Virus genome (UHGV): UHGV-0126656
Length of the DNA: 10,402 bases
Source of the DNA: a virus
Direction: 5' to 3' (one strand)
The position numbers and the translations under genes were made by a program. This document shows positions 1,459 through 10,178 of this stretch, piece after piece. Each line of letters begins with the position of its first letter. The first letter of the stretch is position 1. The notes under the pieces are model-generated. The model did not search any database. It was not told the origin of the DNA and saw nothing but the letters and a program-made list of their open reading frames with translations.

Positions 1459-1883
1459 AACATCCTCCTTTTAACATTCAATCAATGCACATAACGAACA
1501 TCATGACCATCAGTAAAATCACTTCCCAGCGTTTCATTCTGCACCCAATTTCAGTCCATTTACTGCTGTATTCCTTGTTTCTGGCTTCTTTATACCCAGG
1601 TGGGCGGCGGGAAAACGTGACATAGATCCCGGTTTCGTTAATCGGTACAATTACGTCTGATTTTTGCGAAAATGGATTTATTGCAGTTGTAGTGCCAGCG
1701 GGGATTGTGAGAAAGGCCCGGGTAGGTTGCTAACTGCTTGGGCCTTTGTTTGGCGCGTGTACGTGAAAAATAGAAATTTGGCAGGGTAGTTGTAGGGATT
1801 TTTCGCGTATGGGCGTTTAAGGCGGGAAGGTTAATTCTAACGCGCGATTATAATTAAGAATAATCAATAGCTTATATTAAAGA

Positions 1884-2193: not shown

Positions 2194-4398
2194 TTAACGC
2201 CGCCGTGGTTGTAACATGCCTCCAGGTCTTTGCGACTCGCGCTGCATCAGGCGCATTGCTGTGTTTTCTATAGTCTGTTGCAACGCTTTTGAGTCGTCTT
2301 CAGTCCAGCCGTTTGTCGCCTGGATGTTGTTTGTTACGTTCAGTGTGATGCCGCCACCACTGCCAACCAGATCGCGGCCCGGTGTAACTCGTCCACCCTC
2401 GCCGGGGATCATGTACTGTTTCCCGCCAGTAGAGGTAAATAACTCAGGGACACCGTGCTCACCAACCCTGTAAAGATTGCCACCGTTAACCGCGCCGCCG
2501 TTGTAGCGACCACCGCCAAACAAGCCAGTAATGCCAGCCATCAAGGCGCTGATAGCTGACATTGCGACCATCGGGGCCGTCCCCATTGTCGCGGTAGCTG
2601 TCGCCGCTGCTGCCGGGGCCATTGATGATGCGATTGATGCGCCTGTTGCCGCTGCTGTTGCCGCTTGTCCGCTCATTGCGCTGGCGCTGGCTGCCTCGCT
2701 TAAGATCATTTGTTTGACGTATTCAGCGCCCATCTCAGCGATACTTCCCACCACTTTTCCGAGAATGGTAGTCCCGATATTGGCGAAAGCGGTTTCCAGG
2801 TTCTGCGTACCATTAAGCAGGCCGACAACGGCATTTGTAGCGCCACCACTCAGGCCATCAGCCATGTCACCAATCAGGCCATTAATCCCACCTTGCGCCC
2901 GGAATTGTTCCCACTGCGAGGCAAGCAATTCTTCTGCGTGCTGTTGTTTAAGCGCGTTTAGCGTTTCCTCGTTAATCATCTGTTTGTTGAATAGCTCATC
3001 AGCCTGTTGCATTTCAAGGGCATGGCGTTGTTTGAGCGCATCAACGGGATTAAATTGCTCATTAAGCTGTTTTGCTTTTTCTTCCAGTTCGATTTGATGC
3101 TCACGCGCGGCGTTTGTTTCGTAAATCAGGTGCGCAAGGTTTTTCATCTCACTAACCTGTTTTGCCGTTGCGTTAGCGCCCATTTCCTGAACGGCGTCCC
3201 ACATTTCAGCCTCTTTGCTACCCTCAGCAAAGCCCTGGTTAAGTCGTTCCAGTTCTGCGCGTTTCCGTTTCAGCGCTTCTTCTGCCGGATCTTTCTGCGC
3301 GCGTTTCGGTTTATTGCCACCTCCACCGCCATTGTCTTTCAGCTTAATATCAGTGGTGGCCTGCTGTGTCGGTAGCGTTGACACAAAACCCGTAGATTGA
3401 TTGTCTGGCGCTGCGCCTAAGAAGTCGGTTTGTTTGGCTTGAGCGCGGAATAAATCAAGGCCCGGCACAAACGGCTCAAAGGCTGCGGCAAGTGTCCATA
3501 ACTTATCAGCCAATGACGCAGAATCAGATTTCAGCGTTTTAAACCAGCCGGATAGCTCGCGGCAATAATCAGCCAGCGTTTTAATACCGCGACCGACCAG
3601 TTCAGTAACATGCAGCGTCTGGTCGATGGTTTCCAGTAACAGGCTAAAATTTGTTGATAGCTCTGTCATTGCCTGTTCCGTGGTTGTCGGCAGCTTGTTA
3701 AATTCTTTTTCGATTTCGCCTGATCCTTTCAGGATTGCATTTACTACATCCTCAGCCGTCAGTTTGCCATCCAACATGCGGCGACGTAGCTCACCCATTG
3801 AGATCCCCATCTGACTTGCTACGCGCCGCCATAGCTCCGGCATACCCTCCAGGATGCTGTTAAATTCCTCAGCACGGACAATACCGCCGTTAATAGATTG
3901 CCCTAACTGTCGCAAGGCGTTTGCGGCTTCTTCGGATGAACTACCACCAATACGCCCGATCTGCTGTAGTGTCTCTGTCAACTGTAAGATCTGGCCCCCG
4001 GTAGCGTTTGCATCAGACAAAGCTGAAGTAAGGCTTTCCCATAACTTAGTAGTATCCTCAATCTTCATGCCAGTTCGCTTGCTGATCTCAAGAATGCCGC
4101 TAAAATTAGCCTTAGCTTCAACCAGACTACCGGATAGCCGGGATACACGGGCGCGTAGTAGTTTTACGTTGTCCGCGATTTCAATAAAGCGTTTAGCCGC
4201 CATCATTAGCAGGCCAACGTTAACCGCCGCCGCCAGTTTGCTGATTGTCGTATTCAGTTTGTTGATTGAGTTATCAGCGCGCTTTGCGCCGCGTTCAATG
4301 CGATCGAATGCGTCGTCAGCTTGTTTCCCTGCGGTTAATAGCTTCCCTGTGCGCGCATCAACCTCATAATAAATTCTACCTACGTTTGTGTTACTCAT
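2194..4398 (-). CDS. Phage tail tape-measure-like protein (734 aa)
   Basis: Long, mostly helical protein with an N-terminal region typical of tape-measure domains (GMPELWRRVASQMGISMGELRRRMLDGKLTAEDVVNAI), a Gly run (GGGGGNKPKR), a coiled-coil middle, a C-terminal Ala/Gly/Thr/Ser-rich hydrophobic stretch and a Gly-rich tail (LYRVGEHGVPELFTSTGGKQYMIPGEGG). Classification is by resemblance; no search was run. Confidence 0.75.
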   Translation of the reverse strand: MSNTNVGRIYYEVDARTGKLLTAGKQADDAFDRIERGAKRADNSINKLNTTISKLAAAVNVGLLMMAAKRFIEIADNVKLLRARVSRLSGSLVEAKANFSGILEISKRTGMKIEDTTKLWESLTSALSDANATGGQILQLTETLQQIGRIGGSSSEEAANALRQLGQSINGGIVRAEEFNSILEGMPELWRRVASQMGISMGELRRRMLDGKLTAEDVVNAILKGSGEIEKEFNKLPTTTEQAMTELSTNFSLLLETIDQTLHVTELVGRGIKTLADYCRELSGWFKTLKSDSASLADKLWTLAAAFEPFVPGLDLFRAQAKQTDFLGAAPDNQSTGFVSTLPTQQATTDIKLKDNGGGGGNKPKRAQKDPAEEALKRKRAELERLNQGFAEGSKEAEMWDAVQEMGANATAKQVSEMKNLAHLIYETNAAREHQIELEEKAKQLNEQFNPVDALKQRHALEMQQADELFNKQMINEETLNALKQQHAEELLASQWEQFRAQGGINGLIGDMADGLSGGATNAVVGLLNGTQNLETAFANIGTTILGKVVGSIAEMGAEYVKQMILSEAASASAMSGQAATAAATGASIASSMAPAAAATATATMGTAPMVAMSAISALMAGITGLFGGGRYNGGAVNGGNLYRVGEHGVPELFTSTGGKQYMIPGEGGRVTPGRDLVGSGGGITLNVTNNIQATNGWTEDDSKALQQTIENTAMRLMQRESQRPGGMLQPRRR

Positions 4399-4640
4399 GT
4401 CCTGTATATCCGCGTTGTGCGGATACCTCCGATTGTTCTTTACTCTAATAATTCCGCCATGAAACAGTTTATTGCCGCTTCAGTGACTTCGTGTTCAGGT
4501 TTGCTTCAACCAATCACAAAAAACATCGTTTAATAGAATCAATGGCTTATAAAGCTGTATCAGCTATGCTTCTTTGTCAAAGCCACTGAAAATCAAGTTT
4601 TCCCAATGAAATCAATGCTGATATACATCCATATCGTTTT

Positions 4641-4657
4641 TAACGTAATGTACGTTA
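4641..4657. promoter_or_regulatory. Perfect 7-3-7 palindrome TAACGTA-ATG-TACGTTA (candidate operator)
   Basis: Read directly in the 290 bp gap between the 76-aa gene and the tape-measure-like gene; shape fits a dimeric HTH regulator binding site. Confidence 0.35.
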
Positions 4658-4687
4658 TGCGCACTGCGGGAAACGTACTGGATTTAT

Positions 4688-4918
4688 TTACTGGTCGCCG
4701 TTCAGTTCATGCAGAGTCTGTTCTGGCAATGAATCCAGCCAGTTTTCTGCATCCTCCCTGTAACACTCCAGGATGCAACGGTTTGTGAAGTTGATGAAAG
4801 CGGTCAGTGATTCTGCTTCGTAGTTCCTGTGCGCTCTTCTGGCCTGCTTACGTAGTTGTTTCGCTTCTGCCCGCTGGCCTTCGAGTATCTCCAGCCTGTC
4901 TGCAATATCTTGCTTCAT
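4688..4918 (-). CDS. Hypothetical small protein (76 aa)
   Basis: ATG at 4918 with a GAGGAG Shine-Dalgarno 6 nt upstream; 38 nt from the stop of the upstream gene. Charged, helical; no family recognised. Confidence 0.55.
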   Translation of the reverse strand: MKQDIADRLEILEGQRAEAKQLRKQARRAHRNYEAESLTAFINFTNRCILECYREDAENWLDSLPEQTLHELNGDQ

Positions 4919-5331: not shown

Positions 5332-5382
5332 TGGTCACATTGTTAAGTCAGCCGGGGTAATTCCCGGCTTTCTTTTATCCGA

Positions 5383-6269: not shown

Positions 6270-6345
6270 GCTGCCTATTCCTTCAGAAATTGCGGTAGCT
6301 AGCTTTTTAAATCAATAGGTTATTTGATAATCTCAGTAGCTGTTT

Positions 6346-6537
6346 TCATTGGTGGCGAGCGCCTTTGTTTTTATAGAATTCCAAAATCTCAGATCGGATA
6401 AACTTAATTCGTGCACCGACCGGAGTAACCGGAACGGGCCAACCTTTAATCTTGTTAATCCAGCGGAATATAGTGCGTCGGGTAACGCCGAATAAAGCGG
6501 CTACCTCGTTCACCGTCATTAATTCGCTATCATTCAT
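6346..6537 (-). CDS. alpA: AlpA-family prophage regulatory protein / excisionase-like HTH (63 aa)
   Basis: Translation MTVNEVAALFGVTRRTIFRWI... is a typical AlpA/Xis-type helix-turn-helix. GAGGTGA Shine-Dalgarno 4 nt before the ATG. Sits where AlpA-like regulators are usually found in P4-integrase islands. Confidence 0.8.
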   Translation of the reverse strand: MNDSELMTVNEVAALFGVTRRTIFRWINKIKGWPVPVTPVGARIKFIRSEILEFYKNKGARHQ

Positions 6538-6590: not shown

Positions 6591-6729
6591 GCCCTGAATG
6601 AAATTAAAGACCAACATTACTGTTGATACTTAATATTATATTCCTCATGTCCCTGTTTCACATCTTTTACCATATAGGGAAAGGGGATATTCTGTAATGT
6701 TTACAAAACTTTTAATTAGCAAAAAATAA

Positions 6730-6758
6730 TTGCGCATCTCACGTAATACAGGGATAAT
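6730..6758 (+). promoter_or_regulatory. Candidate sigma70 promoter (TTGCGC-17 nt-GATAAT)
   Basis: -35-like TTGCGC (6730..6735) and -10 GATAAT (6753..6758) with 17 nt spacing, pointing toward the plus-strand terminator at 6825..6851. Confidence 0.3.
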
Positions 6759-6764
6759 ATTACT

Positions 6765-6851
6765 CAAGGGCTGGTAACCCTTACTCAAAATGTGATCTAT
6801 AACTACAACGATTGATTTCACTTCCCCGCTCTCTCCGGCGGGATTTTTTTT
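6765..6851 (+). ncRNA. Candidate small RNA (~85 nt), divergent from alpA
   Basis: Bounded by the candidate promoter and a strong intrinsic terminator. No ORF (ATG TGA only). Has a 5-prime stem-loop (AAGGG-CUGGUAA-CCCUU) and an AU-rich linker before the terminator. Confidence 0.3.
6825..6851 (+). terminator. Rho-independent terminator (plus strand)
   Basis: GC hairpin (CCCGC ... GCGGG, 6825..6842) followed by eight T (6844..6851). No plus-strand CDS lies upstream. Confidence 0.6.
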
Positions 6852-7971
6852 GCCTGCAATCACCACATCAAAACTAATTAAAATTAGATGCCGTTTAAAC
6901 GCAATATAACGCATTCTGACGGCCTTAATTTTTGGCAATGCATTTGCTCAGGTGTGATTAGATTGATTCGTCTGGCGTGGAATGGTGCGGCGGTAATATC
7001 AGATCTCAGCGTTCTGTGTGGCGATTCCTCAGCTCTGAGGAGTGGGCGTCCGTCATTCAGTCTCAGCACCTTGCTCAAACGAGATCGGCTGCGATGGCGT
7101 TGTAGGCCGCATTCTGTCGTTTAATGAGACGTGCCTGATTGGACAATCTGAAATCTGGTTGGTGAGACTATTCAGGCGAGACTGTTCAGCGGGGAAAGCG
7201 GCGCATGTCGATGAATCCATTCCTGGATTAATCGGCGTTGTTCCGGTGTCTGGTGAAAATTTAATGAAATCGCATCAATTATAATGCGTCTAAATCGCTC
7301 TGTGGCGACGTGAAGTTTTCAGGTAAGCAAGTGCGGTTATATGTGTTCATCGCGTTACAGGCACCATTCCGTTCGAATTTGGCACGGTCAGGATGGTTTG
7401 CGGTGGTCGGCGGCGGGGATAAACTTGCTTGAGTGGTCACCTCAGCCTGCTGTGCGTCGTGTGATGGTACTGTCTGCACCTGGCTATACGCTGCTTTGCT
7501 GCTGTTTCCTGTCTGGTCTGTATACGCGATAAAACCCATCGGCTTTACAGTGAGTGAGTTTTTTGCGCTTTGCTTTCCATTCGGTTTGCTTACTGCTGCT
7601 GTGTGTCTGTGCGGTAGCTCAGAAAGCTGTTGACGATAACCATCACTGCTAAGCCCGTCTTTTAAGCTGGCAATTGCTCGAAGCCTTCCGAAGGCCCACC
7701 AATAAGAAATCACCCTTTGAGATATACCGCGCTCCCCATGAACGAATGCCATGATGGTTTGTTGGTCTGCTGTTCAGGTTGTACGTGAGTGAATGGGCGT
7801 TTCCAGCTTGCTGGAAATGATTGCGCTAATCAGCATGGTTAATGCTCGCAACCAGCCGACCTATCAGGCGGCGAAATAATTCTTCTGTTTAACTCTAGGC
7901 GACTCTCTATGACCGACCGGGAGGCTAAAAAACTCCCGTCGCCTAGAATTCTTAATAGTAGAATTCTTACT

Positions 7972-8665: not shown

Positions 8666-8839
8666 GAGAAATTCTCCTTTAGCTTGTTTCTCATACCGCC
8701 CCCGGAATGTTGCAGCATGCCGGGGGCTTTTATTTGTGTTGATCCTATTTTCGAACTCTGGATCTTTCGTTGCAAACATGGATTTAAGTTCTTGATATTG
8801 AATAATTTATTCCACTTAATTGGAATAATGGAATAATTA

Positions 8840-8969: not shown

Positions 8970-10178
8970 TCATTCCGGTTCTAGAGGATTGCCGTTACCT
9001 GCCAATATTGAATCAATAGCGTCGGCGTAATCCTGCATCATTGCTCGCCGTTGCTTCAGGTAGGCCGCCTGGTTATAAATCGCCCTGATTCCCTTTGGAA
9101 CATGGGCCAATTGGATTTCGACCCAATCAGGGTTATACCTGCCGGATTCGTTAAGCGCCGTGCTGAATGTTGTGCGCCAGCCGTGGCCTGTAACCGTCGA
9201 TTTGAATCCGATACGCTCCAGGGCTTTAAGGATGGCACTGGCTGAAAGTGGCTTATCCATGAATCGACCAGGGAACACAAAAGCACTGTATCCGCTGCGG
9301 GTAAACTGGTCCTGTAATAGCTCGACCGCCTGCCGGGATAGCGGGACCACATGCGGGCGGCGGGCCTTCATGACTTCAGCGGGTAGGGTGATGGTTGCCG
9401 ATTCCAGATCTACCCACTCCCAGCGCATTAAACGCAGTTCTGCGGTCCTTAGGGCGCTTAATATAAGCAAACGTATTGCCGTCTGAATCTGAACGCTCCC
9501 GGCTCTCTCAAGGGCTTTGTAGAAGGCCGGGATTTCACTAATTTGCAGCCATGCGTTATGACCTGGGCGTCTGGCTTTCAATGCCGTGTCCAGATCTGCA
9601 ACCGGATTTCTGCTAACCAGTTCGGTGATAACGGCAAATTTGAAGATCTCCCCGATACGCTGGCGTAATTTCCTGGCCTGTTCCGGTGCGGTGCGCTCTT
9701 TCTTCTGAAGCAATGCCAGTACGTCACGGGCGGTTATATCAACGATTGAACGTTTTCCCAGCACGGTGTAAACATCTTTCTCTAGTGCCGATCTGACCTG
9801 CTTTGTATAGCTCTCACTCCAACCGCTCACTCTGGTAGCAAACCAGTCTTCCGCTACCGTCTTAAAACTTGCCGCCATGTTGAGCGCATCAATGGCTTTC
9901 TCCTTGCGCGCTTCTTCCATTGGGTCAATTCCCTGGGCGATGAGTAAACGGCTCTCTGTGGCGCGTTTACGTGCTTCCTTCAAGGTAATCAGCGGATATA
10001 CCCCAATAGCCTGTAACCGCTCTTTCTTGTCTATCCAGTACCGGAATCGCCAGTATTTGCTGCCATTGGGATGCACCAGCAAGAACAGGCCAGGTGTCTG
10101 TGAATCGGTGAGTTTGTAGGGCTTGTCCTTCGGCTGGGCGGCCTCTATGCCCTTTGCTGTCAGTGGTGTCTTGCTCAA
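8970..10178 (-). CDS. int: Tyrosine recombinase, P4-type phage integrase (402 aa)
   Basis: N-terminal arm-binding signature (PYKLTDSQTPGLFLLVHPNGSKYWRFRYW) and C-terminal catalytic region (HGWRTTFSTALNESG ... VEIQLAHVPKGIRAIYNQAAYLKQRRAMMQDYAD) characteristic of P4-family integrases. Start codon is TTG at 10176..10178 with a GAGGT Shine-Dalgarno 8 nt upstream. Confidence 0.9.
   Translation of the reverse strand: MSKTPLTAKGIEAAQPKDKPYKLTDSQTPGLFLLVHPNGSKYWRFRYWIDKKERLQAIGVYPLITLKEARKRATESRLLIAQGIDPMEEARKEKAIDALNMAASFKTVAEDWFATRVSGWSESYTKQVRSALEKDVYTVLGKRSIVDITARDVLALLQKKERTAPEQARKLRQRIGEIFKFAVITELVSRNPVADLDTALKARRPGHNAWLQISEIPAFYKALERAGSVQIQTAIRLLILSALRTAELRLMRWEWVDLESATITLPAEVMKARRPHVVPLSRQAVELLQDQFTRSGYSAFVFPGRFMDKPLSASAILKALERIGFKSTVTGHGWRTTFSTALNESGRYNPDWVEIQLAHVPKGIRAIYNQAAYLKQRRAMMQDYADAIDSILAGNGNPLEPE

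Follow-up and report, generated by a model that had tools for sequence, protein, structure and literature searches.

A putative hairpin-bridged Shine-Dalgarno sequence at the end of a conserved leader before a solitary tape-measure gene in an Escherichia coli integrative island

It is well established that the 3' end of the 16S rRNA carries the anti-Shine-Dalgarno sequence. Split ribosome-binding sites, in which a hairpin stands between the Shine-Dalgarno (SD) sequence and the start codon, are to our knowledge textbook rarities, represented mainly by genes 25 and 38 of phage T4. In T4 gene 25 the hairpin shortens the SD-AUG spacing from 27 to 11 nucleotides (nt), in gene 38 from 22 to 5 nt, and mutations that destabilise the hairpin lower initiation in both genes (PMC3014915, which summarises the work on the split region of gene 25 by Nivinskas et al. 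1999 and Malys & Nivinskas 2009). The putative split ribosome-binding site (RBS) described here, which precedes a tape-measure protein (TMP) gene on a small integrative island, joins this known and rare class of initiation region. It was found in a stretch of 10,402 nt from the virus genome UHGV-0126656, referred to below as the window. The island is inserted at the Escherichia coli eutA/eutB junction, which is the site of the cryptic prophage CPZ-55 in E. coli K-12. It encodes an integrase of the intZ type (8970..10178) together with yffL- and yffS-like genes. Every gene of the island is on the minus strand, on which the features discussed here must therefore be read. The TMP gene product matches Pfam TMP_3 (E 9.6e-54) and, over its full length (residues 4-728), the tape-measure family PHROG 1538 (E 2e-110). 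Its nearest phage relatives are the TMPs of mEp013 (50.6% identity), of mEp021-type phages and of Salmonella Oslo-type siphophages. A first-pass annotation of the window had placed a gap of about 290 base pairs (bp) in front of this gene and had noted in it a distant GGAGG, a hairpin, a palindrome and a TTGACA hexamer. The gap spans 4399-4687 (289 nt), and all four features are present on the minus strand where they had been placed (Table 1).

The annotation had also described the TMP gene as starting at an ATG without a correctly spaced SD, and this is borne out by the sequence. The sole SD-like bases near the ATG are an AGGA at 4403-4400, which lies 1 nt from it and is not conserved, and nothing usable as an SD is found at 4-12 nt. 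The strong SD is too far away (beyond ~15 nt): a GGAGG, confirmed together with the hairpin that follows it, lies 27 nt upstream; in its extended forms, GGAGGU or GGAGGUG, it is complementary to the 3' end of the 16S rRNA. Wholly between this SD and the AUG is a stable stem-loop with a stem of 7-8 bp and a loop of 5 nt, in which G4426 and U4406 can form an optional closing pair. The energy of the hairpin in its context is -12.4 kcal/mol (z = -3.0) and 2 of 200 shuffled sequences fold as well; we estimate that ~0.3% of random sequences hold a perfect 7-bp stem in one given 27-nt interval. The folded SD-AUG spacing is 8 nt in the window, inside the range of ~5-11 nt expected of such a site. Among the features noted in the gap, only this arrangement of SD, hairpin and ATG clearly exceeds chance. 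We propose that the GGAGG(U) would recruit ribosomes for AUG 4398 despite the linear distance, in that the hairpin directly after it would loop out 19 nt and leave ~8 unpaired nt, a normal working distance. The split RBS would then form the 3' end of a non-coding leader of ~270 nt (~4667-4399) that is inherited as one cassette with the TMP gene and in which weak or factor-dependent signals for the expression of that gene probably lie as well. Judged from the sequence and from the T4 analogy, a hairpin-bridged SD is probably the best explanation of the TMP initiation region.

Homologues of the region were compared in a set of 40 sequences (the window itself, 24 loci from genomes, 14 contigs from metagenomes and one from IMG/VR), which hold nine distinct versions of the stretch from SD to ATG; individual loci are referred to with L numbers. 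The L026 version is that of E. coli ATCC 8739. Relatives of the gap occur in 105 of 5,426 complete E. coli genomes and are all chromosomal. The GGAGG is invariant in all 40 sequences. Each of the nine versions continues with a hairpin of 6-8 bp that begins 0-1 nt later, followed by 7-11 unpaired nt and the ATG, so that the linear SD-AUG distance is 25-28 nt. The hairpin, with energies of -8.8 to -12.6 kcal/mol, appears in each version's minimum-energy fold, and partition-function folding of each version in a context of 105 nt kept the hairpin and left the GGAG core mostly unpaired. Bases assigned to the stem can pair in 96.8% of cells, compared with 24-51% after a shift of the partners by 1-3 columns, and the observed stem pairing and covariation were reached by 4 of 500 shuffles. 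Stem pairs switch from A-U to G-U and from U-A to U-G, changes by which pairing is kept only in the coding-strand RNA. The L012/L035 version, which was found in a metagenome contig as well as in a complete genome, has another stem at the same place (GCCCGA-AGCGA-UCGGGU), with two pairs changed on both sides. A further version has its loop cut to AAAC and one base lost between SD and stem, and nevertheless keeps the design. Across versions the loop reads ACAAC, ACAAU, AAAC or AGCGA. The spacer between hairpin and AUG, including the AGGA of the window, has a pairwise diversity (pi) of 0.43, equal to that of TMP third codon positions, and its drift looks neutral while the SD and the stem are conserved. 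As the GGAGG, the position of the hairpin, the ATG and the spacer length are kept in nine of nine versions while the spacer sequence drifts, the earlier suggestion that the hairpin brings the distant GGAGG close to the ATG is supported. A conserved split RBS of which one version has a wholly different stem is a natural test case for the reach of hairpin bridging.

Sequence comparison also indicates that ATG 4398, the annotated start codon, is the correct one. In its frame a stop lies upstream at 4482-4480, with no ATG, GTG or TTG between the two, and the next in-frame methionine lies ~65 residues into the TMP, past conserved sequence. The TMP N-terminus aligns from Met1 with the other island versions and with the TMP of phage mEp013, and the match to PHROG 1538 starts at residue 4. 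Between hairpin and ATG, L009 and L042 differ in length by one base and L012 and L035 have a longer spacer, which rules out coding upstream of ATG 4398. An earlier or different TMP start codon was thus rejected on the basis of both the length differences and the Met1 alignment. To gene callers and RBS predictors this start would look SD-less.

The likeness to T4 gene 25 extends to several traits. Both sites have the same linear SD-AUG distance of 27 nt, a stem-loop wholly between the two elements, a functional folded spacing (11 nt in T4 and ~8 nt here) and a structure that is conserved among close relatives, and both precede the gene of a virion tail or baseplate protein. However, their sequences are unrelated, and T4 is a virulent phage whereas the site described here belongs to a small E. 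coli integrative island. The T4 site has been probed by mutation, while the island site is known from its sequence and predicted fold. The T4 site is intercistronic (between genes 26 and 25), and the island site stands at the end of a 270-nt non-coding leader. In T4 gene 38, too, a hairpin between SD and AUG shortens the spacing and is needed there for efficient initiation; the two sites have no homology, the distances differ, and the function of the island site is a prediction. The TMP gene of phage mEp013 is homologous to the island gene from the first residues onwards but has an ordinary GGAG-8 nt-ATG, no hairpin and none of the conserved leader. As this relative has a canonical RBS, the split site belongs to the island cassette and not to TMP genes in general.

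Some observations weigh against bridging. We infer from analogy and conservation that the hairpin enhances initiation; the compensatory changes (two pairs in one version) come from a single lineage and the other versions are close relatives, so that the pair-preserving substitutions that are seen yield modest covariation statistics. In the window version the last G of the SD can enter the stem by pairing with U4406 (unpaired probability 0.04), which could slightly mask the SD. The same pairing would suit a hairpin that acts as a negative or protective element, limiting access, offering a regulator a site, or stabilising or processing the mRNA, with initiation at AUG 4398 being weak or independent of the SD. 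Such a role would agree with the stability of the hairpin (about -10 to -12 kcal/mol) and with the low expression that a TMP from a resident island may need. We nevertheless consider it unlikely: the GGAG core is mostly unpaired, the hairpin sequesters neither the AUG nor the spacer in any version, and the variation of the loop speaks against recognition by a sequence-specific protein. Moreover, an invariant SD that abuts the stem and a constant 7-11 nt to the AUG are predicted by bridging and are not required of a stabiliser. It is more improbable still that TMP translation is coupled to a short upstream frame, either a mini open reading frame (ORF) at 4460-4440 or an AUG in the hairpin loop, instead of relying on a bridged SD. 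Coupling could account for the in-frame AUG or GUG with 3-5 sense codons and a UAA (4442-4440) that is kept in all versions, including the rearranged islands L036 and L021 with their different flanks, and for the L002-type version (14 of 40 sequences), in which GGAGG-N10-AUG CGG AUA AAG AUA UUA UGA overlaps the TMP AUG (AUGA). Yet no SD precedes the mini-ORF, which stops 41 nt short of the TMP AUG. Neither the window (ACG) nor 7 of the 9 versions have the loop AUG, and the C-to-U change in the loop of the L002-type has the further, simple effect of giving the stem one more A-U pair. L002 itself (7094-7130, minus strand) represents the commonest version; the change creates a six-codon frame whose AUG lies 10 nt after the GGAGG.

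Table 1. Positions of the features in and around the leader of the tape-measure gene (window coordinates)
Feature	Position	Strand	Remarks
Shine-Dalgarno GGAGG	4430-4426	-	exactly 27 nt between GGAGG and ATG
RNA hairpin UAUCCGC-ACAAC-GCGGAUA	4425-4407	-	stem 4425-4419 with 4413-4407, loop 4418-4414
Unpaired spacer, UACAGGAC	4406-4399	-	8 nt, between hairpin and AUG
TMP gene	2194..4398	-	734 amino acids (aa), ATG at 4398-4396
Mini-ORF AUG GCG GAA UUA UUA GAG UAA (MAELLE*)	4440..4460	-	ends 9 nt before SD
Candidate extended -10	4448..4456	-	CGG-AATTAT in window, TGn-AATTAT in most versions
Most conserved block, dyad/hairpin UGAAGCGG-CAAUAAA-CUGUUUCA	4461..4483	-	diversity 0.03-0.05 per site
Highly conserved 3' part of leader, ~140 nt	4407..4545	-	diversity 0.10 (0.117 in genomes only)
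Match to IHF core consensus WATCAANNNNTTR (AATCAATGGCTTA)	4537..4549	+	perfect, predicted site
TTGACA with 17-nt spacer and CAGCTT	4552..4580	-	TTGACA 4580-4575, CAGCTT 4557-4552; version-specific promoter-like site
Palindrome TAACGTA-N3-TACGTTA	4641-4657		perfect in window
5' boundary of leader+TMP cassette, ~4667	4664..4670		homology begins at CAGTGCGCAT onward
Upstream ORF, 76 aa, hypothetical protein WP_000806590.1 (RefSeq)	4688..4918	-	annotated in homologous islands
AlpA-type HTH_17 protein gene	6346..6537	-	four genes upstream of TMP gene
Matches to IHF core consensus in whole window	1862-1874(+), 4537-4549(+), 6310-6322(+), 8785-8797(-)		perfect, predicted sites

The leader upstream of the split RBS is shared among islands that differ in what precedes it. 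Islands with different upstream genes all turn homologous at ~4667 (CAGTGCGCAT...), which sets the 5' boundary of a cassette of leader and TMP gene. The upstream neighbours include a terminase-small-subunit-like gene with one ORF, IS1, an ISNCY transposase, an AIPR gene and divergent ORFs, from which the upstream slot appears to be variable cargo or an insertion site. The cassette stands behind an AIPR (abortive-infection) gene in L029 (1-1311), behind IS1 in L031 (586-1283), behind an ISNCY transposase in L039 (1-282) and behind three large divergently oriented ORFs in L019 (5919-10222), and the TMP gene is intact in all of these contexts. In L040 (671-1126), E. coli PEC145, an intact leader and split RBS precede a TMP gene that is annotated as frameshifted, from which it follows that the gene is decaying in some of its copies. 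CPZ-55 of E. coli K-12 shares with the island the eutA/eutB site, the intZ integrase and the yffL- and yffS-like genes, whereas K-12-like variants have the 76-aa ORF and lack the leader and TMP cassette, L033 diverging right after CCCGC at 4668.

In the window the cassette follows the 76-aa ORF. The first-pass annotation had labelled this adjacent gene alpA, which is wrong: its product has no Pfam or PHROG match, no helix-turn-helix (HTH) and no AlpA domain, and the AlpA-type gene sits four genes away. The 76-aa ORF is missing from versions whose leader follows other genes, and in islands without it the non-coding stretch measures ~331 nt. A motif of the form TTTTCGGACA...(T)ACG/CGCGCGC was seen on the minus strand of the window (4956-4919), L004 (4937), L005 (4939), L032 (1230) and L021 (~5705). 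It begins directly behind the stop codons of various upstream genes and looks like a module junction or a regulatory site. In islands without the 76-aa ORF the motif directly precedes the TMP leader; in the window it precedes the 76-aa ORF, which thus looks like an optional insert.

Conservation within the leader is highest towards the RBS. The 3' part of the leader is more conserved than the TMP coding positions, which have a diversity of 0.24, 0.21 and 0.43 at codon positions 1, 2 and 3, respectively. As the metagenome loci were picked by a 22-mer from the most conserved block (4461-4483), the diversity of 0.049 from genomes only is the fair figure for that block. The leader had no real match among 50,697 phage records and plasmids (BLAST, including hits up to E <= 10), and IMG/VR held a single copy of the cassette. 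Searches of species-representative genomes with peptide patterns and the 22-mer of the conserved core returned no relatives, so that the cassette appears to be confined to Escherichia in these collections. The long gap is thus a conserved cassette on a solitary TMP gene and points to unexplored regulation in the CPZ-55 island family.

Within the conserved part, the hexamer AATTAT (4453-4448) is invariant, and in 11 of the 14 distinct versions TGn (TGG, TGA or TGC) precedes it. No other element is common to the rearranged islands L021 and L036. L036 has a gap of 107 nt that keeps only AATTAT onward, while L021 has kept a core of ~50 nt that ends at AATTAT and precedes a different gene with an ordinary SD. 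TGnAATTAT is retained in three unrelated upstream contexts and is a candidate extended -10, from which transcription would start near 4441 and yield a 5' untranslated region of 42 nt that holds the split RBS. The ~50-nt block of L021 was also considered as a promoter-sized unit, an idea that is weakened by its 5' edge, where CTGAACAYGAAG is a microhomology shared with the region in which the 76-aa ORF begins; this edge may simply be a deletion junction.

That the leader moves as a unit with the TMP gene behind unrelated genes makes it plausible that TMP is controlled separately from the upstream genes, as the first-pass annotation had suggested on other grounds. An internal promoter in the leader is a real if uncertain possibility, against which several points count. 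The window has CGG instead of TGn before AATTAT, and the TG bases of the candidate extended -10 may equally serve as the start codon of the mini-ORF. A consensus promoter scan of the gap returned nothing and no -35 is recognisable for AATTAT, nor is there a minus-strand intrinsic terminator between 6537 and 2194, the gap's only terminator-like match being a weak 5-bp stem on the plus strand. These points suit the alternative that the gap has no promoter and that TMP is expressed only by read-through from the promoter of the AlpA-like gene, with the leader acting as an intercistronic RNA: the genes from 6537 to 2194 are all on the minus strand without a same-strand terminator, the gap lacks a consensus sigma-70 promoter, and a perfect TATAAT (6640-6635) lies upstream of the AlpA-like gene. 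We rate read-through as about as probable as an internal promoter. Against it, the cassette is intact behind divergent genes and insertion elements, where read-through from the island is impossible, TGnAATTAT is kept in its unrelated contexts, and no leader RNA structure other than the SD hairpin is supported by covariation. A leader that serves instead as a satellite DNA site, whether a cos/pac packaging site or a replication origin for proteins of a helper or of the island, is rather unlikely. It would explain why leader conservation exceeds that of coding DNA, and in sister islands the leader comes directly after a 'terminase small subunit-like' gene and one ORF, with an HNH endonuclease gene nearby; also present in the leader are an IHF-consensus site and repeats of the TTGATT type at a distance of 73 nt from each other. 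However, the leader has no match in the phage records or plasmids searched (E <= 10), a search in which very short shared motifs could be passed over. In addition, L036 lacks nearly all of the leader and L021 keeps ~50 nt, both with intact TMP genes, and the most constant parts of the leader are those proximal to the RBS.

The TMP gene is the only recognisable virion gene of this eutA/eutB island family, in which no chaperone or other tail genes were seen. Sister islands (L003-L006, L030 and L035) add genes for an HNH endonuclease and a 'terminase small subunit-like' protein. The family looks like a phage satellite, perhaps of mEp013/mEp021-type or Oslo-type siphophages. It shares with phage-inducible chromosomal islands (PICI) and P4-like satellites the small size and an AlpA-type HTH gene, and with them the sister islands share the HNH and terminase-small-subunit-like genes; this comparison rests on family traits of those satellites and on the genes of the island. 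In the literature we found nothing on CPZ-55 with a tape measure or as a satellite, and no described satellite family with a solitary TMP gene. As a speculative and rather improbable extension, leader and TMP gene could form the expression switch of an undescribed type of satellite with the TMP as its sole virion gene. If so, a promoter that depends on a helper or on IHF, or some other site that responds to the helper, would lie in the leader of 270-330 nt, TMP synthesis would be tied to this signal through the hairpin-bridged RBS, and the island would replace the helper's tape measure.

The other two features of the first-pass annotation fared less well as regulatory elements. The palindrome is present and perfect in the window, but its dyad is at chance level (a 7-bp palindrome occurs in 19% of simulated 292-nt sequences of the same composition) and is broken in most homologues: of about 30 versions, the window and L006 alone have it in perfect form, most reading TAACGTACATTATGTGA or TTAGATNCATTA... 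As the dyad is not maintained, an operator for a DNA-binding regulator is not supported. The TTGACA hexamer is likewise present on the coding strand, where it would be expected ~0.07 times per strand of the gap. The site scores 9.8 with a position-weight matrix, at the 99.99th percentile of the window, yet nearly all of this comes from the -35, since the CAGCTT downstream of it matches a -10 at 2 of 6 positions (A2, T6). Nowhere is the gap more variable than in the stretch around the hexamer, which occurs in ~6 of 28 versions, others having CAGACA, CGGACG, ATCCCA or AAACA. A sigma-70 promoter on TTGACA is thus not supported, given its poor -10, the empty consensus scan of the gap and the absence of the hexamer from most versions. 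It could be a weak promoter of a few versions, which cannot explain the conservation of the gap.

Further candidates in the leader gave no support for additional signals. No conserved sigma-70 consensus promoter was found on either strand of the gap, reading the gap by eye for P2/P4 late TGT-N12-ACA, sigma-54, sigma-28 and T4 late motifs revealed none that was convincing, and 9-mers that the gap shares with intergenic DNA elsewhere in the window occurred at chance level only. A scan of the whole window against Rfam 15 (E <= 1) gave no match in the gap. The UGAAGCGG...CUGUUUCA hairpin proposed by RNAalifold has no compensatory change, and substitutions in the L025-type and L032 break its pairs. 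A long-range pairing of 11 bp (4590-4580 with 4489-4479) is lost in other versions. No convincing small ORF was found in the gap: a plus-strand ORF of 24 codons (4460-4534) shows mostly non-synonymous changes and has no SD, and a minus-strand TTG ORF of 20 codons is interrupted by a stop codon in many versions.

The predicted IHF site of the gap is kept at the same place in homologous leaders. In the whole window the IHF consensus has four perfect matches, all intergenic, against 0.58 expected, and none of 200 shuffled sequences reaches four. Three of the matches, all on one strand, have AATCAATRGNTTA in common and are flanked by AT-rich sequence. One IHF-consensus site lies in the ~730 nt 3' of the TMP stop (1459-2193), a stretch with no convincing gene that also holds a promoter-like TTGCTA-18-TAATAT.

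Two plus-strand elements were seen elsewhere in the window. At 6825-6842 a strong terminator-like hairpin with an 8-T tail is preceded by a promoter-like site (6700-6727). The enclosing segment (6700-6852) has a sub-threshold GcvB-like Rfam match, and its fold without the terminator is no better than that of shuffled sequences (z = -0.67). It could be a small RNA of ~120 nt that is divergent from the promoter region of the AlpA-like gene. A GC-rich hairpin of 8 bp with a T tract (5350-5369) lies in the 51-nt spacer between two minus-strand genes and would terminate antisense transcription and not the operon.

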